From: an uncultured Alphaproteobacteria bacterium
GTDB lineage: Bacteria > Pseudomonadota > Alphaproteobacteria > CAAHEQ01 > UBA3637
Assembly: GCA_905236245.1 (NCBI GenBank)
Contig: CAJOPC010000005.1
Coordinates: forward strand, 539 to 64,538
DNA length: 64,000 nt
Reading direction: 5' to 3'
Position 1 is the first letter of the stretch; each line of letters starts with the position of its first letter. The translations under genes and the position numbers were made by a program. Below, one piece after another: positions 2,320 through 62,395 of the stretch. The notes under the pieces are model-generated. The model was not told the DNA's origin and ran no database searches. It worked only from the letters and a program-made list of their open reading frames with translations.

Positions 2320-3038
2320 TGAATATACAAACCGAAAACGATAAAATCCCTCAACACATTGCCATAATTATGGATGGTAATGGGCGTTGGGCAACCGAAA
2401 AAGGGTTGCCGCGCACCGAAGGACATCGTCAAGGAGCCAAAAACGTTCGTGTGATTTTGGAACACGCCAAAGAACGTGGGGTCAAGTATGTCACTTTATA
2501 TGCTTTTTCGTCCGAGAATTGGAATCGTCCCAAAGAGGAAGTCAATGTTTTGATGGAATTGTTTCGGAAATATCTTAAAGAAGATGTGGCAGATTTGCAA
2601 AAAAACAAAGTTTGTGTGTCCTTTATCGGGGATCGGGCGCGCTTCCCGGAAGATATGCAGGAGCGCATGAACGAAGTAGAACGTGAAACAGCAGATTATG
2701 ATGATTTCCATGTCGTTTTGGCGCTTTCCTATGGCGCGCGTGACGATATGATTGCCGCCATTAAGCGTATTGCTATGGATGCGATGGACAGAAAGTGTAT
2801 GATTTCCGCCATCAATGAGCAAGTTGTCAATGACGCTTTATCCACTCATGGAATTCCTTATCCAGATTTAGTGATTCGCACCAGCGGAGAGCAACGCCTC
2901 AGCAATTTTTTGTTGTGGGAAATTGCCTATGCTGAGTTGTATTTCACTCCAATTTATTGGCCCGATTTTAACGAGCAGGATTTAGATATTGCTATCGAGG
3001 CCTATGGTCGCCGCAACCGTCGTTTCGGCAAAGTGTAG
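2319..3038 (+). CDS. uppS: undecaprenyl-diphosphate synthase (cis-prenyltransferase)
   Basis: Carries HIAIIMDGNGRWA, TLYAFSSENWNRP and IRTSGEQRLSNFLLWEIAYAELYF motifs. TAATG start/stop overlap with frr. Confidence 0.93.
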   Translation: MNIQTENDKIPQHIAIIMDGNGRWATEKGLPRTEGHRQGAKNVRVILEHAKERGVKYVTLYAFSSENWNRPKEEVNVLMELFRKYLKEDVADLQKNKVCVSFIGDRARFPEDMQERMNEVERETADYDDFHVVLALSYGARDDMIAAIKRIAMDAMDRKCMISAINEQVVNDALSTHGIPYPDLVIRTSGEQRLSNFLLWEIAYAELYFTPIYWPDFNEQDLDIAIEAYGRRNRRFGKV

Positions 3039-3039
3039 A

Positions 3040-3858
3040 TTATTTGCATAAGATAAATTGCCCACTTTCACCGCAATAATTGCCTTGGCAATAAGGAGTT
3101 TGTTCTTCGGGACAGCAAGCGTTAAACCGGCATACATTATTCCCATAATATGACACACAAGAAGGTGTGCACCCCGTCTCGTTGCAACGATATTCTTTAC
3201 ACACTCCGTTACTGTAATATTCAAAACAATAAATGGCTCCTGCACAACATGAGACATTTAGGCAATTCCCATCCTCATTTTGCTTGCGACAATAACCTGT
3301 TTGTCCATCCTGACAACAACTATAGTAGTCATCTACAACATGAGGATGAGTCCCTTCGGAACAACAAACACCGCCTCCATCAGGTAAAGCGTTTTTATAT
3401 AAAATGCCTTGGCAACATCCATAATTGTCTCCATAAGAGAACCTATGCATAACATAAGGTTCTCCAGAACAACAAATATTATAATCATATGCACAATTGC
3501 CATCGGGATCTACTGTTTTGCAATATGGAACACCATCACAACAAATGGGGTATTCAGGGCCATATATTCTTGTGGCTGTTTGATTGGCATTACAACACAA
3601 AGGAATGCTTTCATTACAACATTGGTTTGTTTCTTTATTGCACACATTATCCCCTTGACAACAATAATCGCCGCATTGTTTTTCGGCTGGGCATGTTTCT
3701 CCGGGTGAATCTCCGTCTTTCCCATTAAAATGTATGCCGATTGAGTCAACGCCCGTTCCGCGATAAATGGAAGATTGTCGGCTTTTGCCTCCTCCTCCGA
3801 AGGCAAGTACACTTGTTGCCACTAAAATTGCAGAGCCAAATAATAATACTTTTTTCAT
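3040..3858 (-). CDS. secreted hyper-cysteine-rich protein, family member 1
   Basis: The ATG at 3858 is preferred over the TTG at 3873. Signal peptide MKKVLLFGSAILVATSVLA is followed by the leader module FGGGGKSRQSSIYRGTGVDSIGIHFNGK, shared with the ORFs at 12719 and 61511. The remainder has 36 Cys, including 10 CC doublets. Confidence 0.75.
   Translation of the reverse strand: MKKVLLFGSAILVATSVLAFGGGGKSRQSSIYRGTGVDSIGIHFNGKDGDSPGETCPAEKQCGDYCCQGDNVCNKETNQCCNESIPLCCNANQTATRIYGPEYPICCDGVPYCKTVDPDGNCAYDYNICCSGEPYVMHRFSYGDNYGCCQGILYKNALPDGGGVCCSEGTHPHVVDDYYSCCQDGQTGYCRKQNEDGNCLNVSCCAGAIYCFEYYSNGVCKEYRCNETGCTPSCVSYYGNNVCRFNACCPEEQTPYCQGNYCGESGQFILCK
3718..3801 (-). repeat. coding segment for the conserved post-signal leader module (copy 1 of 3)
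   Basis: Encodes FGGGGKSRQSSIYRGTGVDSIGIHFNGK. The same 28-aa module is encoded at 12827..12910 and 61568..61651. Confidence 0.8.
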
Positions 3859-4092: not shown

Positions 4093-4659
4093 ATGAAACC
4101 AGAATCTCAAAAACAATCTTTAGATAGTAGAATTTATAGCGCCATCAAGGCCTTATGTAATGAAGATGCAAATGATGATCAAAAAGGTGCAGCTGCACCA
4201 GGATCGATTCGTGTTCGGGATGCTTTATCAGCGTTTGGCTTTTTGGCTCAACGCGCATCTGCACGAGAAATTGAATTTCACAAAGGTGATTATTTGCGGA
4301 TGTTTAATAAGACGCTGAATACCTTGGCGCCTGTTGCGGTTGAATCGGACGCAAAAGATTCGGCAGTTGCTGCGCCCGCCGTTGAGTTTACACCGACGAT
4401 TGTTGTTTTGGCAGATTGGTTTTTGAAACAAAATGAACTTTCTTACAATTCAAATTATCGAAACCGCTTGATTGATATGACCAAGATTATCGCTGCAAAA
4501 AATTTGCCGGTGCCATCTGAAAAGAAGGCAGATTGGACAAAGAAATTGGCTCCGAAACGTCCTCGTTCAACGAATATACGTCCGTTGAACGAACCTGCGG
4601 AGACTTGCACATGTACTCCTTTGACCTGCCATAATCGTCTTCCATCGATATATGACTAA
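4093..4659 (+). CDS. hypothetical protein (188 aa)
   Basis: A GGAAAGGA SD precedes the ATG. It ends 12 nt before mipZ on the same strand. It has an Ala/Pro-rich middle and a basic, Cys/Thr-containing tail (ETCTCTPLTCHNR). I recognise no family. Confidence 0.5.
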   Translation: MKPESQKQSLDSRIYSAIKALCNEDANDDQKGAAAPGSIRVRDALSAFGFLAQRASAREIEFHKGDYLRMFNKTLNTLAPVAVESDAKDSAVAAPAVEFTPTIVVLADWFLKQNELSYNSNYRNRLIDMTKIIAAKNLPVPSEKKADWTKKLAPKRPRSTNIRPLNEPAETCTCTPLTCHNRLPSIYD

Positions 4660-12688: not shown

Positions 12689-12718
12689 GGGGTTATAGAA
12701 TTGAATCAAGGAGTTTTT

Positions 12719-13948
12719 ATGTGTCAAAATAAAATTCATACCCTCCCGCGTTGTCACAAGCATTTAATTTTTAAAGTATTTTTAGCTATTTTTCTGGCCT
12801 TAATTGTTGCGTCGTCTGCATTTGCTTTTGGCGGTGGAGGCAAAAGCCGCAAGTCTTCTGTTTATCGCGGAACGGGGGTGGATTCCATTGGCATACATTT
12901 TAATGGAAAAGGCGGTGATTCTGAAGAGGAATCGGAAGAGACATGTCCTGCCGAAAAACAATGTGGTGATTATTGTTGCCAAGGGGATAATATTTGTCAA
13001 AAAAATGAGGCAGGAGAGTTTCAGTGTTGTAATGAAAAAACAGGACATTGTTGCGTTGATAATCAATCGGCTTATAAGACTCCATGGACTTCTAATTCAT
13101 GTTGTTCGGGAAGTCTGTATTGTTATGGGCGAAATGAAGATGGTACTTGTCGGTATGATTGGTTTGCTTGTTGTCCTAGCACATATGAGCTTCATAATGA
13201 TTATTGTTGTAATGGAAAAATATTTATAGGAGCGGGTGTTGATGGTGCGGACATGTGTTGTTCTGCTGATACACAGCCTTCGTGTTCTATTCGAAATAAA
13301 GAAGGGGTTTGTAAAGGCGCATTTTGTTGCCCAGGAGATGTAACAAAAAGGCCGGAAGGTGATGTGTGTTATGCAGCAGAATTTACGGGCTGCAAAACAA
13401 ATTCAGATTGTGATTCTGGTGAATATTGTAAGTTAACGGGAGATAAGTGTAAATATCCTAGCGAGGGAGTTTGTACGGCCATAGGAGATTATTTGGAACC
13501 AGAAAATGAAATAAGCGGTTTGGGTAGAGTGAAGATAAGTCTTGATGATCGGATGACATGGTGGTCGGCGGATAATTGGTGTAAAGCCCAAGGAATGCAT
13601 TTACCAGAAGTGGAAAAATTTAATTGTTATATGAGCGGGACCAGTACGCCGGTAATATCTGGAATCGATCGCCGAGGGGCTTGTTGCGCTGGGGATGATG
13701 TTGAATGTGAAATTATTGGTGATTGGTTTTATGAAAATAAAAGGGATAAATATAGTCCTATTTTATATGAATTAAAACAAGCTATTGGAGAAGAACATTG
13801 GGGTTGGTGGTATTATTGGACAGCCTCTCGTGTATATGAAAAAGATGATGATGGTTGTTTTTACTTTAATATATCGTTAGCACATGCTGATGTCGGAGTA
13901 TACAATCGTGATTACTTGGGCATGCGAGCTCTTTGTGTTAATGATTAG
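12719..13948 (+). CDS. secreted hyper-cysteine-rich protein, family member 2, with lectin-like C-terminal domain
   Basis: ATG 12719 has an AAGGAG SD 5 nt upstream. The hydrophobic leader ends ...SSAFA and is followed by FGGGGKSRKSSVYRGTGVDSIGIHFNGK. The block ETCPAEKQCGDYCCQGDNIC is shared with member 1. Many CC doublets follow, and the tail is Trp/Tyr-rich (MTWWSADNWCKAQGMHLP ... YYWTAS ... ALCVND). Confidence 0.75.
   Translation: MCQNKIHTLPRCHKHLIFKVFLAIFLALIVASSAFAFGGGGKSRKSSVYRGTGVDSIGIHFNGKGGDSEEESEETCPAEKQCGDYCCQGDNICQKNEAGEFQCCNEKTGHCCVDNQSAYKTPWTSNSCCSGSLYCYGRNEDGTCRYDWFACCPSTYELHNDYCCNGKIFIGAGVDGADMCCSADTQPSCSIRNKEGVCKGAFCCPGDVTKRPEGDVCYAAEFTGCKTNSDCDSGEYCKLTGDKCKYPSEGVCTAIGDYLEPENEISGLGRVKISLDDRMTWWSADNWCKAQGMHLPEVEKFNCYMSGTSTPVISGIDRRGACCAGDDVECEIIGDWFYENKRDKYSPILYELKQAIGEEHWGWWYYWTASRVYEKDDDGCFYFNISLAHADVGVYNRDYLGMRALCVND
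12827..12910 (+). repeat. coding segment for the conserved leader module (copy 2 of 3)
   Basis: Encodes FGGGGKSRKSSVYRGTGVDSIGIHFNGK. Confidence 0.8.
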
Positions 13949-21082: not shown

Positions 21083-22823
21083 AAAAAAATCTTCGGCAGT
21101 TTTTTATAGACCTTGTTGTGAGATTCCTTCTCCGCAAAAGGAAAAAGAACGATATGTAGATCCGACAACCAAAAAAAGTTTGAAAATTGCCGCAGGGCGA
21201 GCTTTGTTTTTATCTATTATTTTCGTATTATTCTTTTTTGTGATTTGGGGTAGGTTGTTTTATCTAACTGTTTTGAATTACAGCAAGCGTCCAACAACAT
21301 CTTTGCAATGGGATCGACTTGAAAGTTTGCCGCGATATAACATTACCGATAGAAATGGTGTTGTTTTGGCAACGACTCTTTCCTCGTGGGATATCTCGGT
21401 TAACCCTTCCAAGGTGAAAGACCCTGAAGAAGTGGCTCGCCAAATTGTTGAAAAAATACCAGATCTTGATGAAAAGGAAGTTTTAGCAAAGCTGACTTCT
21501 GATTCGAATTTTAAGTATATTAAAAGAGGTGCGACGCCAACGGAATTAGAGGCGGTGAATTGGTTGGGATATCATTTTTTAACCTATGAAGCGGTGAATA
21601 AACGTGCTTATCCGCAAGGACCACTTTTTTCCCATATTTTGGGCGGCGTCAACATCGACAACGTGGGTATTGCAGGCGTTGAAAAGGCGTTTGATGCCGA
21701 ATTAAAAGAACATGAATTACAGCTTTCTTTGGATACTTCTGTGCAAGAAATGGTTCGCACTAATTTACAAAACGGTATTGCAAAATACAAAGCCGAAGGG
21801 GGCTTGGGAATTGTATTGGATATTAATACGGGCGAAATATTGGCCAGTGTTTCTTTACCAGATTATGATCCGGAGCTTCCCGCTGATAAGGATGCTAATG
21901 ATCGGTTTAATATGCCGACTTTGGGCGTTTATGAATTTGGTTCAGTGTTTAAATTATTTAACACGGCAATGGCTTTGGAAAATAAAGTTGTGAAGATAAC
22001 GGATGTTGTTGATGCATCCCATCCTTTGAAAATCGGAAAAAAGACGATGGAAGATTTCCATGGTCAAAATCGTCCTTTGACGATTACAGAAATTTTGATG
22101 CATTCCTCCAATATTGGATCAGCAAAAATTGCTTTGGAAGCAGGTTATCAAAAGCAACGAGATTTTTTGCAAAAATTTAATTTTTATGAAAAGTTGCCTA
22201 TCCCTTTGCCAGAGCGTGGGCAGCCTTTATATAACACAAAGGAAAAATGGGCAGACATTGAAAGTGCAAACGTGTCTTTTGGATATGGTATTGCCATTAC
22301 GCCACTCCATTTAATTGCGGGCGTTGCGGCTCTTACAAATGGTGGATATTATAATGTTCCGACTTTTTTAAAAAACGGGAATAAAGATAAAGCCGCCACG
22401 AAAGTATTAGATTCAAATATATCTGAAAAACTACGCCAAATGATGTGGGCGGTTATCAATTGGGATCCGTGGACAAAAAATCCGGCCAAATATTATGCGG
22501 TTGGTGGTAAAACAGGAACGGCTAATATGAAAGATGGGCGATCCTATAATACGAACAAAGTGAGAACTAGTTTTGTAGGGGTGTTCCCCGTGAATAATCC
22601 AAAGTATGCGGTGCAGGTAACTTTGTTGAATCCGAAAGGAATCAAGGAGACACATATGTTTAACAATGCTGGCTGGAATGCTAAGTTTGTTGGACTAACA
22701 ATTATCAACGAAATAGCTCCTTACTTAAATGTGGCGCCGGTTTTGGATTATCAACCTCCGGAATTCGTGCAAAAATCTATCGATATTTCTTTAATTAAAA
22801 ATGGAAGGAAAAAAGCGCAATGA
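21069..22823 (+). CDS. ftsI: peptidoglycan D,D-transpeptidase FtsI (PBP3)
   Basis: Has a TM anchor, a PBP dimerisation region, and the transpeptidase motifs SVFK (SxxK), SSN and KTGT. Confidence 0.9.
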   Translation: MLFNRKKSSAVFYRPCCEIPSPQKEKERYVDPTTKKSLKIAAGRALFLSIIFVLFFFVIWGRLFYLTVLNYSKRPTTSLQWDRLESLPRYNITDRNGVVLATTLSSWDISVNPSKVKDPEEVARQIVEKIPDLDEKEVLAKLTSDSNFKYIKRGATPTELEAVNWLGYHFLTYEAVNKRAYPQGPLFSHILGGVNIDNVGIAGVEKAFDAELKEHELQLSLDTSVQEMVRTNLQNGIAKYKAEGGLGIVLDINTGEILASVSLPDYDPELPADKDANDRFNMPTLGVYEFGSVFKLFNTAMALENKVVKITDVVDASHPLKIGKKTMEDFHGQNRPLTITEILMHSSNIGSAKIALEAGYQKQRDFLQKFNFYEKLPIPLPERGQPLYNTKEKWADIESANVSFGYGIAITPLHLIAGVAALTNGGYYNVPTFLKNGNKDKAATKVLDSNISEKLRQMMWAVINWDPWTKNPAKYYAVGGKTGTANMKDGRSYNTNKVRTSFVGVFPVNNPKYAVQVTLLNPKGIKETHMFNNAGWNAKFVGLTIINEIAPYLNVAPVLDYQPPEFVQKSIDISLIKNGRKKAQ

Positions 22824-25612
22824 AATTAAAAGAACTTTTAGATACCTCATTAGATATAGATATTTCTGGCATTACCGAAAGGGCTTCGGATGTACAGCCG
22901 GGTGATGTTTTTTGCGCCATTAAAGGGACAAAGGTAAATGGTGCCGATTTCATTGATTCGGCGATCGAAAAAGGGGCTGTGGCTATTTTAACGGATCAAG
23001 AAATTACAACCACTGTTCCGGTTGTAAAATGCGAAAATCCGCGCACCATTTTGACACAAATCTGTGCTAAACTTTATCCGTCAGAGCAATTAAAAAAGGT
23101 TGCAGTCACCGGAACAAATGGTAAAACTTCCACGGTTTATTATACGGCCCAAATTATGAATGCGTTGGGCGTGTTAAGTGCCAGCATGGGAACAATCGGT
23201 ATTGATTCTCCTGTTTACAAGCAAGATGGTAAAATGACAATGCCGGATGGTGTCAGGTTAAACAAGTCCTTTCACGATTTGCAAGAAAAAGGTATTCAAG
23301 TTGTGGCGATGGAAGCGTCAAGTCATGGGTTGGATCAAGGCCGCTTGGATGGACACAAAGTGCAGGCAGCGGCTTTCACGAATTTAACGCGAGATCATTT
23401 AGATTATCATCAAACAATGGAAAATTATTTGAACGCAAAAATGCGTCTGTTTTCAGATTATATTGTTGAAAATGGAATGGCAGTATTAAATGCGGATGTC
23501 CCGGAATATGATGTCTTAAAGCAGGTATGTTTACAAAAAAAATTGAACATTATTTCGTATGGAAAAAATGCTGAAACATTGAAATTGGTTCAACAAAAAC
23601 CGATGCAAGATGGTCAAATTTTGACCATTGAAGTTGATGGTAAAACATATGAAATCCCTTTGAAAATTTATGGTGATTTTCAAGCATACAATATTTTGGC
23701 AGCCACAGGATTGTGCATGGGGCTTGGAAAAACATGGACAGAAATTGCCGCTATTTTGCCGAGTTTAGTATCGCCGCCAGGACGATTGGAGCCCATTGGA
23801 GAAATAAACGGAGCTCAAATTTTTGTCGATTATGCACATACACCGGATGCGTTAGAGCGGGTTTTAAATTCTTTAAGACCTCATACACAAAACAAACTCA
23901 GTTGTTTATTTGGTTGCGGGGGTAATCGGGATAAAGGAAAACGTCCTCAGATGGGAGAGATTGCAGATCGGTTAGCAGATGTCGTGTATATCACGGATGA
24001 TAATCCGCGGGATGAAGAACCGGAAATGATCCGCCAAGAAATCAAACAAGCATGTCCGAAGGGAATAGAGGTCGATTCCAGACAACAAGCTATTCAAACG
24101 GCTATTCAAAATTTGACAGCCGGCGATATTCTTGTGTTGGCCGGGAAAGGACATGAATCTGGTCAAACAATTAAAGGTGTTGAGTATCCGTTTAATGATA
24201 AAATTGAGGTTCAACAAATCTTAAAATCTTTAACGCCAAATCCGTTGTGGACAGGGAAAGAATTACAACTTGCTTTAAATAATCCTTCTGTTCTGCCGGA
24301 ATTAAAAGCCTATGGAGTTGTGTTTAATTCGAGAGAAACAAAAGTCGGTGATATTTTTATTGCCCTGACAACGGGCCAAACGGATGGACATCAATATGTT
24401 CAAGATGCTTTGAATAGAGGGGCTGTTGTGTGTATTGTTTCTCATGAAATGCCAAATGTTTTTGCGCATCAACAAATTGTTGTGCCCGATACATTACAGG
24501 CTTTGCATGCTTTGGCACGATTTGCGCGTATGCGGACTCAGGCCCAAGTGGTGGGTATTACGGGCAGTTGTGGAAAAACTTCCACAAAGGAAATGTTGCT
24601 TGCGACGCTCCAAGAACAAGGAATTGCTTATGCAACGGCGGCCAATTTTAACAATAACTTAGGCGTTCCATTTACCTTGGCTAATATGCCGGCAAATACG
24701 CAGTATGCCATTATTGAAATGGGGGTCAGCCATCCGGGAGAAATGACTGAATTGTCTGATTTTGTACGACCGAATGTGACAATCGTGACAAATATCGCTC
24801 CGGCGCATCAAGAATTTTTCCCGGATAAGCGTGCAATTGCTGCCGAAAAAATTCATATTTTAGATTATCAAAGTAAAGATGGGACTATTGTTTTAAACGC
24901 AGATGATGAGCAATCTCAATTTATGGCAGACACAGCAGTTGCCGCCGGAATCAAGAAAATTATTCGTTTTGGTCAAAATGATCAATCGGATTTTAAGTTG
25001 CTTTCTGCGCGCGTGACCAATGATGCAACAATTGTTTCTGCTCAATGGTATGAGGAAAAATTAGATTTTGCTTTACGGTTGATCGGTCGGCATTTTGCCA
25101 TAAACGCCTTGGGTGTTTTGGCCGTTATTGACGCCTTGGGCGCGAGTGTAGATTATGCAGTCAAAACATTGGAAAAGTTGAAGCCTATTGCCGGTCGAGG
25201 TCAAACAACGGATCTGTCTATAAACGGAAAAACCGTTCATATTATAGACGATGCTTACAATGCAAATCCGGCCTCTATGGGGGCGGGAATTGCCGCTTTA
25301 GGTGCGCGGTCCGGACAGAAAATTGCCGTATTGGGAGACATGTTGGAATTAGGTGACAATTCCTATCAAATGCATCTTGACATATTGGATCAATTGGAGG
25401 AAAATGGGGTCAGCAAATTGTATGCTGTCGGGCCCATTATGAGTCAAGTCTTTGATTTAGCCCCCCCTCATTTGCAAGGAGCAAAAGCCCCTTCGGCCGT
25501 GGAGTTGGCCGATCGCTTGCGCATGGATTTGCAAGATGGGGATTGGGTTCTTTTCAAGGCATCCCATGGCATTGGATTAGCTAAATTAATAAAGGAATTA
25601 AAAGGAGAGTAA
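22820..25612 (+). CDS. murE-murF: fused MurE (UDP-MurNAc-tripeptide synthetase, mDAP type) / MurF (UDP-MurNAc-pentapeptide synthetase)
   Basis: This is a single 930-aa ORF. Residues 1-470 are MurE-like (GTNGKTST, DNPR motif, GKGHE). Residues from about 473 (24236 onward) are MurF-like (LWTGKEL..., GITGSCGKTSTKEM, DDAYNANPASM). There is no stop or frame change at the junction, around 24229-24236. Confidence 0.85.
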   Translation: MKLKELLDTSLDIDISGITERASDVQPGDVFCAIKGTKVNGADFIDSAIEKGAVAILTDQEITTTVPVVKCENPRTILTQICAKLYPSEQLKKVAVTGTNGKTSTVYYTAQIMNALGVLSASMGTIGIDSPVYKQDGKMTMPDGVRLNKSFHDLQEKGIQVVAMEASSHGLDQGRLDGHKVQAAAFTNLTRDHLDYHQTMENYLNAKMRLFSDYIVENGMAVLNADVPEYDVLKQVCLQKKLNIISYGKNAETLKLVQQKPMQDGQILTIEVDGKTYEIPLKIYGDFQAYNILAATGLCMGLGKTWTEIAAILPSLVSPPGRLEPIGEINGAQIFVDYAHTPDALERVLNSLRPHTQNKLSCLFGCGGNRDKGKRPQMGEIADRLADVVYITDDNPRDEEPEMIRQEIKQACPKGIEVDSRQQAIQTAIQNLTAGDILVLAGKGHESGQTIKGVEYPFNDKIEVQQILKSLTPNPLWTGKELQLALNNPSVLPELKAYGVVFNSRETKVGDIFIALTTGQTDGHQYVQDALNRGAVVCIVSHEMPNVFAHQQIVVPDTLQALHALARFARMRTQAQVVGITGSCGKTSTKEMLLATLQEQGIAYATAANFNNNLGVPFTLANMPANTQYAIIEMGVSHPGEMTELSDFVRPNVTIVTNIAPAHQEFFPDKRAIAAEKIHILDYQSKDGTIVLNADDEQSQFMADTAVAAGIKKIIRFGQNDQSDFKLLSARVTNDATIVSAQWYEEKLDFALRLIGRHFAINALGVLAVIDALGASVDYAVKTLEKLKPIAGRGQTTDLSINGKTVHIIDDAYNANPASMGAGIAALGARSGQKIAVLGDMLELGDNSYQMHLDILDQLEENGVSKLYAVGPIMSQVFDLAPPHLQGAKAPSAVELADRLRMDLQDGDWVLFKASHGIGLAKLIKELKGE

Positions 25613-25613
25613 A

Positions 25614-26699
25614 ATGTTTTTTTACCTGTCACAATTTTCGGATAGACTCAGTTTGTTGAACGTTTTTAAGTATCAAACTTTTAGGATGGGCGCTGCGCTA
25701 TTAACAGCATTTTTCATTACGTTATGGTTAGGGCCCAGATTGATTAGATGGTTGAAAAACAAGGAAGGTGAAGGACAGCCTATTCGTGCGTGTGGTCCTC
25801 AAACACATTTGTCCAAAAAGGGAACGCCGACAATGGGTGGTTTAATGATTTTATTTGGAGCAACTCTTGCTGCTTTGATGTGGACAAATTTGGTGAATAT
25901 ATATGTATGGATTTTATTGGCAACATTTTGGGGATTTGGTTTTATTGGCGCCATTGATGATTATTTAAAATTGACCCATCATGACAGCTATGGCGGTGTG
26001 CCGGGCAAGGTAAGATTGGCTATTGAATTTGTAATGGCGGCAGTGGCGTGTTTAGCTATGATACATTTGGCTAATGCCCCTATGCAAACAACTTTAACGA
26101 TTCCGTTTTTCAAAAATATTTTGATTGATTTGAGTTATTTTTACATACCATTTGCGATGTTTGTTATGGTTGGAGCGGCCAATTCTGTGAACCTTACAGA
26201 TGGTTTGGATGGACTTGTGAGTTTCCCGGTCATTATGTGCGTTTTTGTCTTTATGGTTATATCCTACATTTGTGGCCGCACGGATTATTCGGAGTATTTG
26301 CAAATTATTTATATCCCGGATGCCGGAGAAATTGCTATTTTGTGTGCCGCAATTATTGGTGGAACATTGGCCTTTTTGTGGTATAACGCGCACCCTGCAC
26401 AAGTTTTTATGGGCGACACGGGCTCTTTGGCTTTGGGCGGATTTTTAGGAGCTCTTTCTGTTGCAACAAAACACGAAATTGTTTTGGCTATTGCCGGTGC
26501 TATTTTCGTAGTTGAAGCGTTGTCCGTTATGATACAAGTTGGCTCATTTAAATTGCGGGGAAAAAGGGTCTTTTTAATGGCTCCAATCCATCACCATTTT
26601 GAAAAATTAGGATGGAGCGAAACGACCGTTGTGACACGGTTTTGGATCGTTTCCATTTTGTTGGCATTGATGGCGTTAGCCACATTAAAATTGAGGTAA
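25614..26699 (+). CDS. mraY: phospho-N-acetylmuramoyl-pentapeptide transferase
   Basis: Has KGTPTMGG, NSVNLTDGLDGL, VFMGDTGSLALGG and MAPIHHHFE. Confidence 0.95.
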   Translation: MFFYLSQFSDRLSLLNVFKYQTFRMGAALLTAFFITLWLGPRLIRWLKNKEGEGQPIRACGPQTHLSKKGTPTMGGLMILFGATLAALMWTNLVNIYVWILLATFWGFGFIGAIDDYLKLTHHDSYGGVPGKVRLAIEFVMAAVACLAMIHLANAPMQTTLTIPFFKNILIDLSYFYIPFAMFVMVGAANSVNLTDGLDGLVSFPVIMCVFVFMVISYICGRTDYSEYLQIIYIPDAGEIAILCAAIIGGTLAFLWYNAHPAQVFMGDTGSLALGGFLGALSVATKHEIVLAIAGAIFVVEALSVMIQVGSFKLRGKRVFLMAPIHHHFEKLGWSETTVVTRFWIVSILLALMALATLKLR

Positions 26700-26702
26700 A
26701 GT

Positions 26703-27824
26703 ATGTATTCAATCAGCAAATTGAAAAAGCTTGTTTTAACAGAATTTCGGAGTATCGATCGCGGAATTTTGTATAGTGCTTTGTTGCTGATGTTTTTCGG
26801 GTTGTTTTTAACGCTTGCTGCAGGCCCCGCGGTGGCGGAACGTCGTCATTATGATTGGTTCTATTTTGTCTACAAGCATCTTGTTTTTTTACCAATAGGA
26901 TTAGTGGTTTTGTTTATAACGGCTCTTTTTTCGGTTAAAACGGCGCGGCGATTGTCATTTTTGACATTTGTTGGTGCTATTTTGGGTATGGTGGCCGTTT
27001 TGATTTTTGGAACTAATTTCCAAGGTGCTTCTCGATGGATTTCTGTTGCCGGTATTTCAGTTCAACCCTCTGAGTTTGCAAAGCCGGCTTTTGCGGTGGT
27101 TATTGCCTGGTTTTTAGCTAGAAGCAAATTGATTTATCAATCTCATGGGGCTTGGTTGGCATGGGGAACATGGCTTATTACAGTTGTCCTTTTAAAATTA
27201 CAGCCGGATTTTGGTATGATTTTGACAATTACGGCGATCTTTGGAACCGAGTTGTTTTTGTCGGGATTACCAAAATGGATTATTGCCATTTTAGGTTTTG
27301 GGGCGGCTTCGCTGATTCCTTTGGCATATTTGACAATGGAGCATGTGCGATCCCGTATAGATACTTTTTTGAATCCAACGGATGCAAATGCTTATCAGGT
27401 TAAAAAATCTATGGAAACTTTGGAAAATGCAGGTTGGTTCGGTAAAGGTCCTGGCGAAGGCATTGTGAAATTTGAATTACCAGATGCACACACAGATTTT
27501 ATTATGGCGGTGTCGGCCGAAGAATTTGGTTTTCTTTTGTCGAGCGTGATTGTAATTACTTTTATGTTTATCGTATTTAAAGGGAGTCAACTGATTCGTC
27601 AAAACAACAACTATTTTGTGCAGTTGGCTGTATGTGGGCTTTTAACACAAATTGCCTTTCAAGCGATTGTGAATTTAGGCTCAACGCTGAATCTTTTGCC
27701 GACGAAAGGGATGACGTTGCCACTTATTTCTTATGGCGGGTCGTCTTTAGTCTCTATGGCATTTGCCTTTGGTTTAATTTTAGCATTAACGAAACGACAA
27801 ACATTTTCAAGGGGGCTTGAATGA
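26703..27824 (+). CDS. ftsW: SEDS-family peptidoglycan glycosyltransferase FtsW
   Basis: A multi-TM protein with QPSEFAKP, LPDAHTDFIMAVSAEEFG and LPTKGMTLPLISYGGSS, in dcw context. Confidence 0.9.
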   Translation: MYSISKLKKLVLTEFRSIDRGILYSALLLMFFGLFLTLAAGPAVAERRHYDWFYFVYKHLVFLPIGLVVLFITALFSVKTARRLSFLTFVGAILGMVAVLIFGTNFQGASRWISVAGISVQPSEFAKPAFAVVIAWFLARSKLIYQSHGAWLAWGTWLITVVLLKLQPDFGMILTITAIFGTELFLSGLPKWIIAILGFGAASLIPLAYLTMEHVRSRIDTFLNPTDANAYQVKKSMETLENAGWFGKGPGEGIVKFELPDAHTDFIMAVSAEEFGFLLSSVIVITFMFIVFKGSQLIRQNNNYFVQLAVCGLLTQIAFQAIVNLGSTLNLLPTKGMTLPLISYGGSSLVSMAFAFGLILALTKRQTFSRGLE

Positions 27825-51389: not shown

Positions 51390-52487
51390 TTATGAAACTC
51401 GGAACATCGGCAACCCCTTTTCCAAACGGGTTTGTTGTTGTTCCATAAAGGTGGCCAAATTGATATTTCCATCCCGAATAGCCATGCGCATTTGATCCGC
51501 CGCTTGGTTGTTTGGATTTGCAAAGGCGGCTTGATAAATTAATTTCAAATTTGTTGTGCCTTCCAAGCGTTGATGAATAACGCCCAAAATACCACGGGCC
51601 AACAAGTCCGCAGCCAAACTGTTTTCCAAACCTGTTGATGCGGCATATTTTATCATTGAGTTCAACGCGTCTTCGACCCCATTGGCGTGAATAGTTGAAA
51701 TAACTAAGTGTCCGGAACAAGCTGCCACCAAACATTGGCTAGCCGTTTCGGGCGTACGAATTTCGCCGACCAGGATGTAACGAGGACGGGAACGCAGAGC
51801 AGATCTCAAACCCGCGCCCCATTGATCATTTTCAACGGATGTTTGTTTGCACAATCCTAATCCGCCGTTTTTGGAATAATAAATTCCAGACAAAGGCATT
51901 TCAGGCGGGTCTTCAATGGTGTACAAAAATCCGCCATCCGTATCCAAAAAGCGTTTCATCAAGGCGGAAGCCGTGGTCGTTTTACCTTGACCCGTTGGAC
52001 CGGCAAATAGTAAAAGACCTGCAGCACGTCCCAAACTTGTTAAATGGTGGACAACAGATGGTGCAAAACCCAATGTTTCAATTTCCGGTGTCATTGTGGG
52101 CATTTTACGGCAGTTATATTGTATGCCATCAATTGTATTGACGCGTTCCACACGGTATGAGTCGCCGGCAAATCGGATAGAATAGCTGGACATTCCAGTA
52201 AAACCTTGCTCTAATGCCAGATGAAAATCTTGTAAATCATTGGTTTCGATAGGAACCAAAGCAAAGCTGGTTCGTTGATCGCGAATATAGGCAACACCCT
52301 CCGGAGAATACCAAATATCTGCAAAATCCACCTCATGCAAAGAGGTTCCCATGACCTTATTTTGGCTAGTTACCTTTGCTGTGAAATCGGCAATACTCAT
52401 TGCCTTTTTTTCTGTTTCATTAGTTTCAGAAGGTAAAGGATTTTGTGTTGTTTCTGAATCTGTCGGATGTTTAATACTAAAAATCAT
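51390..52487 (-). CDS. PilT/GspE/VirB11-superfamily secretion ATPase (orphan)
   Basis: Has Walker A GPTGQGKTT, Asp box YTIEDPPE, Walker B YILVGEIR and His box GHLVISTIHAN. The PilT-like N-domain shows SIRFAGDSYRVERV...CRKMP. ATG 52487 (AAGGA SD) is preferred; the alternative is ATG 52532. Confidence 0.8.
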   Translation of the reverse strand: MIFSIKHPTDSETTQNPLPSETNETEKKAMSIADFTAKVTSQNKVMGTSLHEVDFADIWYSPEGVAYIRDQRTSFALVPIETNDLQDFHLALEQGFTGMSSYSIRFAGDSYRVERVNTIDGIQYNCRKMPTMTPEIETLGFAPSVVHHLTSLGRAAGLLLFAGPTGQGKTTTASALMKRFLDTDGGFLYTIEDPPEMPLSGIYYSKNGGLGLCKQTSVENDQWGAGLRSALRSRPRYILVGEIRTPETASQCLVAACSGHLVISTIHANGVEDALNSMIKYAASTGLENSLAADLLARGILGVIHQRLEGTTNLKLIYQAAFANPNNQAADQMRMAIRDGNINLATFMEQQQTRLEKGLPMFRVS

Positions 52488-52606
52488 TTTATCTTTTCCT
52501 TTTCTGTTGATGATCCTGATACTTTTTAACATGCCCTTTTTTTCTGATTTTTACAAGTATTTTTTTGAAAAAGTATCTCCTAAATCGAAAAAATAAAAAA
52601 ACTTGT

Positions 52607-61510: not shown

Positions 61511-62395
61511 ATGCGTAAAGTTTTGTTATTTGGCACGGCAATTTTGGTGGCGACAAGCGTTTTAGCTTTCGGTGGAGGCGGTAAAAATCGTAAGGGTTCT
61601 ATTTATCGAGGAACTGGTGTTGATTCCATTAATGTGCATATAAATGGGAAGGGCTCAGAAGAAGGAACGGATGAGCACGGTTGCCCAAAGAATAGTTCCT
61701 ATAATGAACAGTATGACCAATGTTTTTGTGAAAATGGCTATTATATGTGGAATCATGTTTGTGTTCCGACAAGAGCAAAATGTGATGAGTTGGGCGGTTA
61801 TTGGTGCACAAATAGTGAATATTCTACGTGTGAAAAAAGTGAATCCGATTGTTATGTTCTTTGCCCAGAGGATAGAAAATGTAATGGAACTTGCTGTGGT
61901 GAGGGAAACACATGTCATCAAGACGAGCTGGGTGTTTATCAATGTTGTAATGATGAAATAGGTCAATGTTGTGATGCTGGAGAATCACGAGGCTATGGCC
62001 GTGATTATGGAGGAGACAGGTGTTGCCCATTAAATAGTGTTTGGACACGTGATGGTTTTTGCTTTGAGAATGCGGCTATATATAAAAATTTTCCATACCA
62101 AGGAAATGATCATTATTTCATGAATGAAGCAACATGTGGGGTTTTTGATAGTGAGGGGAATTGTATAGAATTAAGTTATATTCCTCAAGAGGGTTTAGTT
62201 TGTTATGGGATTGATTCTAATGGGCATTGTCGCTCGATGGTGCCTGCTTGTCCAGAAGGACAAACGCCGTATTGTCAAGTTTGGAAAAAGGGTGATTATG
62301 AATTTGCTGATTGTAATGCTGGCCCGGGGCGGCAGTGTTGTTCTGGCACAGTAATTTATGGTGAAAAGGGAAATCTCGATATTTGTAATCAGTAA
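61511..62395 (+). CDS. secreted hyper-cysteine-rich protein, family member 3
   Basis: AGGAAAGGAAAG SD. The signal peptide MRKVLLFGTAILVATSVLA is almost identical to member 1. The leader module is FGGGGKNRKGSIYRGTGVDSINVHINGK. It has 30 Cys with CC doublets, and the C-terminal CPEGQTPYCQ echoes member 1 (CCPEEQTPYCQ). Confidence 0.75.
   Translation: MRKVLLFGTAILVATSVLAFGGGGKNRKGSIYRGTGVDSINVHINGKGSEEGTDEHGCPKNSSYNEQYDQCFCENGYYMWNHVCVPTRAKCDELGGYWCTNSEYSTCEKSESDCYVLCPEDRKCNGTCCGEGNTCHQDELGVYQCCNDEIGQCCDAGESRGYGRDYGGDRCCPLNSVWTRDGFCFENAAIYKNFPYQGNDHYFMNEATCGVFDSEGNCIELSYIPQEGLVCYGIDSNGHCRSMVPACPEGQTPYCQVWKKGDYEFADCNAGPGRQCCSGTVIYGEKGNLDICNQ
61568..61651 (+). repeat. coding segment for the conserved leader module (copy 3 of 3)
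   Basis: Encodes FGGGGKNRKGSIYRGTGVDSINVHINGK. Confidence 0.8.

Follow-up and report, generated by a model that had tools for sequence, protein, structure and literature searches.

Giardia VSPs and ciliate surface antigens are Cys-rich coats of eukaryotic microbes. Two further designs are built on adjacent cysteines (CC doublets): granulin/epithelin, a hairpin-stack fold (Hrabal et al. 1996, cited in PMC4527844) whose genes, in the survey of PMC4527844, are all eukaryotic, and coral galaxin, a secreted, acidic protein (isoelectric point (pI) ~4.5) with 12-13% Cys, which consists of tandem di-Cys units, shows little conservation beyond the Cys, and has a repeat of ~30 aa with two CC (PMC2726143). 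Here we analyze a 64-kb stretch of DNA from an uncultured alphaproteobacterium (64,000 nucleotides, hereafter the window), in which a minus-strand gene at 3040-3858, hereafter member 1, encodes an exported protein with ten CC doublets. We found that member 1 belongs to an expanded and previously unclassified family of exported proteins, apparently restricted to one clade, in which a new N-terminal module is joined to a bacterial variation, also new, on the disulfide hairpin-repeat design. On balance, and with moderate confidence, we read member 1 from its sequence and predicted structure as a Sec-exported, disulfide-laddered extracellular stalk, adhesin or coat protein that would carry a new sorting or anchoring tag. 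Its parts are the following.

3040-3858, minus strand: coding sequence of member 1, with an ATG start and 272 aa plus the stop at 3040-3042; it equals database protein P0001.
3802-3858, minus strand: Sec-type signal peptide, aa 1-19, MKK / VLLFGSAILVATS / VLA, with the signal peptidase I cut predicted after V-L-A (-3/-1 rule, by eye).
3718-3801, minus strand: 28-aa N-terminal module FGGGGKSRQSSIYRGTGVDSIGIHFNGK, a proposed sorting or anchoring tag.
3043-3693, minus strand: CC-doublet region of predicted beta-hairpin repeats, aa 56-272 (217 aa, 36 Cys, 10 CC).

The plus-strand translation of 3040-3858 is riddled with stops, and the real open reading frame (ORF) lies on the minus strand, which the original prediction, made from the sequence of the window, had left unremarked. 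The protein starts with a signal-peptide-like segment (MKKVLLFGSAILVATSVLA), and the signal peptide claimed for it is supported by the positive charge of the n-region, by a hydrophobic core of 15 residues and by V-L-A in positions -3 to -1, followed by F. As read from these residues, the N-terminus has the features of a Sec and signal peptidase I substrate, with no lipobox Cys; a lipoprotein is ruled out, the first Cys being found only at residue 56. A linker of 8 residues separates the module from the Cys region. The mature protein is acidic (pI 4.6, ~27 kDa), the composition is rich in Tyr, Gly, Asn and Asp, and Cys accounts for 13.2% of the whole protein.

A word-indexed search of 5.8 billion proteins returned only 22 relatives, none of them named, and an exhaustive hidden Markov model (HMM) search of 1.84 billion cluster representatives (clusters at 50% identity) returned 165 clusters at E<=1e-3, 99 of them at E<=1e-10. 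What nearly all of the 165 matches have in common is the N-terminus, not the Cys region: the module begins at residue 1 in most of the representatives and at or near it in all, and the consensus of the shared N-terminus consists of a signal peptide ending in A-[LF]-A-F-G-G, a Gly-rich spacer and K-S-x-x-Y-[KR]-G-G-V-D-[AS]-I-G-V-H-[FI]-x-G, with A19, F20, G22, G36, I40, G41 and H43 invariant. Judged from these alignments, the hallmark of the family is the 28-aa module rather than the CC region, a point absent from the original prediction; its statement that the module recurs in two further genes of the window is correct, as a regular expression and a six-frame HMM search both give exactly two. 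Behind the module, which more than 150 clusters have in common, we found at least three unrelated types of passenger, namely CC-doublet repeats (in 80 of 159 proteins), CxC EGF-like modules and an "WWSADNWCKAQGM...ALC" domain, and giant members reach 1,743-1,769 aa with 68-88 CC doublets. The module has no match in Pfam or in NCBIfam release 20.

Among seven paralogues of this organism the module shows 77% protein identity, and 47% of the identical residues are encoded by differing codons. Moreover, the similarity among paralogues starts exactly at the ATG, while the DNA upstream is not conserved. Protein identity with scrambled synonymous sites, together with this onset at the ATG, indicates at the sequence level that purifying selection acts on the module as a peptide, and rules out a shared promoter, a 5' cassette or recombination as the source of the N-terminal conservation.

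The expanded, lineage-specific family suspected from three copies in the window is real, as four further members lie on a 12.7-kb contig of the same organism and the exhaustive search adds the 165 clusters. At least 13 of the first 22 matches have the same source pattern (NCBI + ENA and four contigs), from which we estimate at least 15 paralogues per genome. Positional orthologues retain the module and a C-terminal cap and little else, so that it is the passenger that diverges, as would be expected for exposed proteins. The cap, CC-[SAP]-G-T-V-[ST]-x-G-x4-6-D-x-C-x0-3, is conserved in many members (P0002, P0003, P0005, P0006, P0009, P0012, P0014, P0018, P0019 and an ORF of locus L007, described below); member 1, which ends in ...CGESGQFILCK, does not have it.

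The Cys region of member 1 holds exactly the 36 Cys and 10 CC doublets first counted, the doublets being in excess of the 5.0 expected (200,000 composition shuffles, P=0.0035). It opens with an N-terminal cap, C-x5-C-x3-CC-x5-C-x6-CC-x6-CC, followed by 23-aa units with four Cys and 16-19-aa units with two, the Cys gaps running 5,3,0,5,6,0,6,0,16,0,5,8,6,0,17,0,... along the protein. The repeat unit initially proposed, CC-x-G-x2-3-C-x4-7-[DNE]G-x-C-x4-6-CC, describes the three 23-aa "type A" units (CCDGVPYCKTVDPDGNCAYDYNI, CCQDGQTGYCRKQNEDGNCLNVS, CCAGAIYCFEYYSNGVC...) and does not extend to the remaining "type B" units of 16-19 aa, in which the Cys are limited to CC. Giant members carry a 23-aa unit, CC-x2-G-Q-x3-C-x3-D-x2-G-x-C-x4, and a 17-aa unit, CC-x-G-T-V-Y-x-G-x-G-x2-G-x-D-L, and P0097 contains long runs of a 12-14-aa unit, CC-P-x-G-V-x2-V-D-x-D-G-N. 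The Cys positions, whose loss among homologues had been named as a possible refutation, are kept: 11 are invariant in 18 sequences (C56, C62, C66, C67, C73, C80, C81, C88, C89, C129 and C130), and four of these (C80, C81, C88 and C89) in 80 sequences.

We built an AlphaFold2 model of member 1 from an 18-sequence alignment. Its mean predicted local distance difference test (pLDDT) score is 75, with values above 90 at residues 60-170 and below 50 in the signal peptide and module. The predicted fold is all-beta and made of successive beta-hairpins; the DSSP string assigns 33 of 36 Cys to strands and places 9 of the 10 CC doublets wholly inside one strand. In addition, of 95 module-bearing members, 78 have an even number of Cys in the mature part (binomial P=8e-11), which is the signature expected if all Cys are paired and from which we infer disulfides. 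In runs of units that contain CC alone, each Cys would need a partner from an adjacent unit, vicinal bonds aside, which suggests an inter-hairpin disulfide ladder.

This arrangement has no counterpart in the collections that we searched. Foldseek found none for the CC model in the PDB (best E=0.57, TM (template modeling score) <=0.14, generic TNFR/EGF/furin-like rods), and against the PDB and BFVD together it returned non-significant matches alone (TM<=0.16) and no known fold. Member 1, the family profile and two giant relatives were also compared with the sequences of the PDB, where none of them had a match, and the three window proteins had no match in Pfam and NCBIfam at E<=10 except a chance Binary_toxB. 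The original prediction was therefore right that no known bacterial family accounts for the protein, the Pfam, NCBIfam and PDB sequence searches with it being empty even at E<=10. In the literature we found nothing specific on a described bacterial CC-repeat family or on the biology of the clade.

The likeness to granulin that had been pointed out earlier may hold in principle for the predicted architecture, and does not hold for the sequence. AlphaFold2 predicts for member 1 stacked beta-hairpins with in-strand CC doublets, as in the granulin design, the disulfides would likewise staple neighbours, and the N-terminal cap C-x5-C-x3-CC-...-CC-x6-CC recalls a half-granulin. However, the Cys gaps of member 1 do not follow the granulin 12-Cys motif, C-x5-6-C-x5-CC-x8-CC-x6-CC-x5-CC-x4-C-x5-6-C, and there is an extra Cys; granulin is a fixed 12-Cys module, whereas the CC region is an open-ended repeat. 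Granulin membership (PF00396) is ruled out, as 0 of 80 members match the HMM at E<=0.1 and member 1 does not at E<=10; BLASTP of member 1 against human granulin A, with an approximate granulin sequence, gives E=0.14, and no granulin is found among the Foldseek matches of the CC model.

At the sequence level, the di-Cys repeat of coral galaxin looks like a closer analogue than granulin. Member 1 and galaxin have secretion, 12-13% Cys, an acidic pI and tandem di-Cys units in common, and Galaxin_repeat (PF24748) is the sole Pfam family approached by any relative, with 3 of 80 members at E<=0.1 and a best match, in P0097, at E=5e-6 and 26.9 bits versus the 28-bit gathering cut-off; member 1 itself has no match to it at E<=10. 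Nevertheless the units differ, ~30 aa with two CC in galaxin versus 12-24 aa with one CC here (plus two single Cys in type A), and galaxin is metazoan and tied to biomineralisation, whereas the present family is bacterial, has its own N-terminal module and shows no biomineralisation link. Apart from the coral skeletal matrix, galaxin-like proteins are known from molluscs and squid.

These likenesses could mean that the CC region is a granulin/galaxin-type module which came from a eukaryote by horizontal transfer and now serves as an effector aimed at the host, where it mimics a growth factor or matrix protein on ruminant epithelium or rumen protists. The CC-doublet hairpin architecture, the sub-threshold Galaxin_repeat matches, the shared Cys content, secretion and pI, and the eukaryote-like modules found in paralogues (CxC EGF-like, lectin-like fold) all speak for such an origin. 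We nonetheless consider it improbable: neither the granulin searches nor the unit lengths support it, bacterial N-termini (the module, a pilin-like segment or a plain signal peptide) stand on all 165 matches listed, no eukaryotic sequence is present among the 150 matches listed from the 1.84 billion representatives, and the likeness could be mere convergence on a disulfide ladder. Rather, bacteria appear to have arrived convergently at the granulin/galaxin design in these CC repeats.

The reading of member 1 as an extracellular stalk, adhesin or coat protein draws on the domains with which the CC region is combined, in the window and in related genomes; the lectin-like head of one paralogue and the pilin-like fusions of relatives, described below, had escaped the original prediction. 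The two other module-bearing genes of the window are as follows.

12719-13948, plus strand: paralogue 2 (P0007, 409 aa), with a longer signal peptide, the module, CC repeats, a small Cys knot and a C-terminal lectin-like domain.
13346-13945, plus strand: C-terminal 200 aa of paralogue 2, small Cys knot and predicted C-type-lectin-like fold (WWSADNWCKAQGM ... ALC).
61511-62395, plus strand: paralogue 3 (P0019, 294 aa), with a signal peptide, the module, a CxC EGF-like segment and CC repeats.

AlphaFold2 predicts a confident fold for the C-terminal 200 aa of paralogue 2 (mean pLDDT 86.7, predicted TM score 0.86), and Foldseek against the PDB placed members of the C-type-lectin-like domain (CTLD) superfamily at almost all of the top ranks, with E values of only 0.03-0.5 and a best TM(target) of 0.54. 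These matches include EgtB/FGE, Endo180, the intimin C-terminus, bitiscetin (snake-venom CTLs), LYVE-1 and phage Mtd. The domain has no Pfam match in paralogue 2, and the CTLD-like result agrees with faint HMM matches of relatives to FGE-sulfatase (P0026, E=0.51) and SenA. In every member that has the lectin-like domain (paralogue 2, at 13346-13945, P0004, P0010, P0017, P0020, P0021 and P0022), a small, conserved Cys knot stands in front of it, C-x-SN-x-DC-x3-EYC ... YP-x-G-x-C-x2-IG, and one member has a faint Dickkopf_N match (E=0.2). The start of paralogue 2 is either the ATG at 12719 or a TTG at 12701; with P0033 and P0057, it (12719-12830) forms a subgroup with a long Cys/His-containing n-region ahead of the hydrophobic core (MCQNKIHTLPRCHKHLIFKV...; MCRNM...).

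A second combination is found in relatives that begin like type IV pilins and continue with a CC domain homologous to that of member 1, namely the L007 ORF (2185-3282, minus strand), P0094, P0156 and P0158. Their leader reads G|RSMVEMLGVLAI..., with E at +5, and in related genomes the segment before the CC domain likewise reads ...G|RSMVEMLGVLAIIGVLS..., with E at +5. The pilin-like assignment is supported by HMM matches to N_methyl (E=0.035) and to an NCBIfam prepilin-dependent pilin model (E=0.018), and the homology by a BLASTP match of member 1 to the L007 ORF (E=3e-9, 32% identity over 174 aa); the N_methyl motif is not present in member 1. Two further loci, L041 (1-1683, minus strand) and L042 (2-1684, minus strand), encode pilin-like N-termini followed by a different ~45-aa Cys-rich tandem repeat (…GDDGKCYxCxxxNPIGMxNATSMCxxxCSNRVANGW…), which suggests that the clade has a wider habit of mounting Cys-rich repeats on pilins. 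In the window, a lone T2SSE-family (PilB/PilT/CpaF-like) ATPase gene is encoded at 51390-52532 on the minus strand, amid plus-strand core genes, and this ATPase may be linked to the pilin-type N-termini of the CC-domain relatives.

A lectin-like head on the rod and the rod on a pilin suggest that the CC domain works outside the cell, in structure or in adhesion, most likely as the stalk or the binding surface in proteins of an adhesin or coat type. Among the envelope cross-linker, adhesin and host effector that the original prediction had offered, the data favour an adhesin, stalk or coat. In the mechanism that we propose, member 1 would be exported by Sec and cleaved after A-x-A, as read from its sequence, and the Gly-rich, intrinsically unstructured module of ~28 aa would serve as a secondary address or tether that sorts the passenger after Sec export. 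We infer this role from the position of the module, its invariance and its pairing with unrelated passengers; it could direct the protein into an export path across the outer membrane, or dock on some component of the envelope. The passenger would consist of ~10 short beta-hairpin units, each opening with a CC doublet whose two Cys would point to opposite faces of the strand and each be bonded to a Cys of a neighbouring hairpin, yielding a covalent ladder. Such laddered hairpins would form a rigid, protease-resistant rod, and the domain partners, the rapid divergence and the protease-rich gut habitat suggest that the rod is a stalk, a binding surface or a protective coat. Member 1 would then be a stalk-only or self-binding version.

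Several described surface systems resemble parts of this scheme. In intimin/invasin (PDB 1f00), rod-like repeats with a CTLD-like end recall paralogue 2, intimin being among its top Foldseek matches (E 0.03-0.5), whereas the present family has no Big/Ig-like repeats, beta-barrel anchor or LysM. Minor type IV pilins carry C-terminal binding domains, and the pilin-like relatives likewise carry the CC domain at the C-terminus of a pilin. The N22 segment of CsgA is a Gly-rich targeting peptide found after the signal peptide of curli subunits and, like the module, it is short, unstructured and placed right after a Sec signal peptide; the analogy would be mechanistic alone, and no sequence similarity is claimed. 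CsgG/E/F-like genes were not seen, and a disulfide-folded passenger would misfit a CsgG-type pore unless it is oxidised outside the cell.

The TIGR04201 (Myxo_Cys_RPT) proteins, the Giardia VSPs and the ciliate antigens are, like the present proteins, products of exported multigene families with ~10-13% Cys, which join a conserved targeting segment to a variable Cys ectodomain, and it is plausible that here, too, they form a surface layer that withstands proteases in the gut. In contrast, the family described here uses CC where these Cys-rich coat proteins use CxxC, and its conserved segment is N-terminal and soluble where theirs is a C-terminal transmembrane anchor. We saw no sign of antigenic switching, the upstream DNA being unconserved and repeat cassettes absent. 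Membership in TIGR04201 is ruled out, as only 3 of 80 members match it weakly (best E=0.0017) and member 1 does not match. A more far-reaching version of our reading, which we put forward as a speculative and on the whole doubtful proposal, is that the 28-aa peptide is an as yet undescribed signal with which a clade of gut Alphaproteobacteria sorts or anchors proteins after Sec export. In each genome it would direct dozens of variable passengers, armoured with disulfides, to the cell surface, and these would give an anaerobe a Cys-rich coat or a repertoire of adhesins that resists proteases and diversifies rapidly. If this were true, the repertoire would be a bacterial counterpart of the Giardia VSPs or the ciliate surface antigens, and the post-Sec signal would imply a dedicated export or attachment partner.

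The organism that encodes these proteins is a diderm bacterium, and the window is part of its core genome, encoding BamA, Skp, LpxB/I and MipZ. The core genes include tsf-frr-uppS, mlaE/F, radA, rpoH, map, radC, uvrA, nusA-infB-rbfA-truB-pnp and a full dcw cluster in which MurE and MurF are fused, as well as ftsZ, rseP, bamA, skp, lpxI and lpxB. The fusion is a 930-aa ORF (22820-25612, plus strand) with two Mur_ligase_M and two Mur_ligase_C domains, and mraY (25614-26699) is followed by the gene at 26703-27824 with no obvious separate ORF of murD size in between. MipZ is known as an alphaproteobacterial protein, and a scan of GTDB species representatives with it gave 40 loci, all of them in uncultured Alphaproteobacteria/Pseudomonadota metagenome-assembled genomes (MAGs). 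The closest come from goat abomasum (RGIG1596, 95% identity), UBA3650 (94%) and yak and sheep rumen, with human-gut MAGs more distant. Contigs with the same proteins were taken from ENA and Logan assemblies, and one contig of the same organism carries a gene for pyruvate:ferredoxin oxidoreductase (PFOR), because of which the host probably has an anaerobic lifestyle.

The window has a GC content of ~41%, and every recovered context of the family is that of an uncultured alphaproteobacterium with ~41-42% GC and the same core-gene repertoire. Given this uniformity, the family appears restricted to this uncultured gut alphaproteobacterial clade. A scan of JGI metagenomes with the module gave 8 loci only, all with ~41-42% GC and core-gene contexts. 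A scan of GTDB genomes with the family alignment gave 32 pattern matches and no confirmed one. The family genes lie between core genes at recurring spots: paralogue 3 is directly downstream of pnp, as is P0012 in a related genome (L004), and paralogue 2 adjoins map-radC-uvrA, where two members are also found in L050. The pilin-like CC gene of L007 lies just upstream of the mipZ region, the same place as that of member 1 in the window, and a small ORF without Pfam match (164-239 aa) is found just upstream of mipZ both in the window and in two related genomes (window 4093-4659, plus strand; L005 3495-3989; L007 3267-3986). On its other side, member 1 converges with uppS, their stops (3040-3042, minus strand, and 3036-3038, plus strand) being 1 base apart; no terminator-like hairpin was detected at this convergence, and a promoter/terminator scan around member 1 gave no more sites than shuffled sequences.

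Some of the results weigh against the stalk, adhesin or coat that we favour. Member 1 itself has neither a lectin head nor a pilin part, and the CTLD assignment of paralogue 2 depends on the Foldseek E values given above. The five AlphaFold2 models span mean pLDDT values of 57.6-75.2 with an alignment of just 18 sequences. The module is predicted to be disordered, its tethering or sorting role being hypothetical, and no recurrent neighbour gene that could be an export or anchoring partner was seen in the examined loci, including the 8 JGI loci. Finally, rumen and gut habitats together with PFOR imply a strongly reducing setting, in which extracellular disulfides need explaining, and a Dsb-like CxxC protein was not found in the window, which is a fraction of the genome.

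The last two points would suit thiol or metal chemistry, in which reduced Cys of a strict anaerobe, periplasmic or outside the cell, bind Zn, Cu, Fe or Ni in the manner of metallothioneins, scavenge oxidants or buffer sulfide, and a content of 9-13% Cys with CC pairs would fit as well. The bias towards even Cys numbers argues against this, as do the confident all-beta hairpin model with its Cys in strands, the scarcity of CxxC or CxC-His motifs in the CC region, and the lectin-like and pilin fusions, which suit a structural extracellular role. Metallothioneins generally lack aromatic residues, and the Tyr/Gly/Asn/Asp-rich composition is unlike theirs; we regard such chemistry as unlikely. A little less probable still are secreted antimicrobial or competition factors, i.e., bacteriocin-like Cys-rich toxins in an arms race with rumen microbes or protozoa. 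Export, richness in Cys, quickly diverging passengers and many paralogues are in line with such toxins, and a galaxin-like protein has reportedly been listed with the immune factors of the squid host in its symbiosis with Vibrio, but most Cys-rich antimicrobial peptides are cationic, in contrast to the pI of 4.6 here; moreover, sizes reach 1,769 aa, no immunity, ABC-export or processing genes adjoin the family in any examined locus, and the lectin-like and pilin fusions indicate adhesion.

The cross-linker mentioned in the original prediction, which like chlamydial OmcA/OmcB would stiffen the outer envelope by an intermolecular disulfide network, is very improbable in spite of the high Cys content, the export signal and the several paralogues, as even Cys parity and a self-contained hairpin model favour intramolecular pairing, the complete dcw/Mur cluster means that the host has peptidoglycan, and OmcA/OmcB membership is ruled out by the lack of matches to the chlamydial Cys-rich Pfam families, or any other, in the three window proteins (E<=10) and the 80 members.

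Read as an exported stalk, adhesin or coat family, member 1 and its relatives would enlarge the protein universe by an unclassified pair of domains that Pfam, NCBIfam and the PDB have missed, namely the N-terminal address peptide and the hairpin repeat with its CC doublets, and the open-ended, covalently laddered hairpin rod may provide a scaffold for protein engineers. The significance would be greater if the module were a new surface-sorting signal, or if a gut anaerobe did make heavily disulfide-bonded surface proteins; the family raises the questions of whether a short conserved motif after the signal peptide defines a new surface-sorting route in diderms, and of how such an anaerobe makes and keeps these proteins outside the cell. 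For the organisms themselves, it would single out the exported family that has expanded most in this uncultured alphaproteobacterial clade, whose members are widespread in gut metagenomes of ruminants and occur in those of humans as well, and it gives a handle on their attachment or self-protection.

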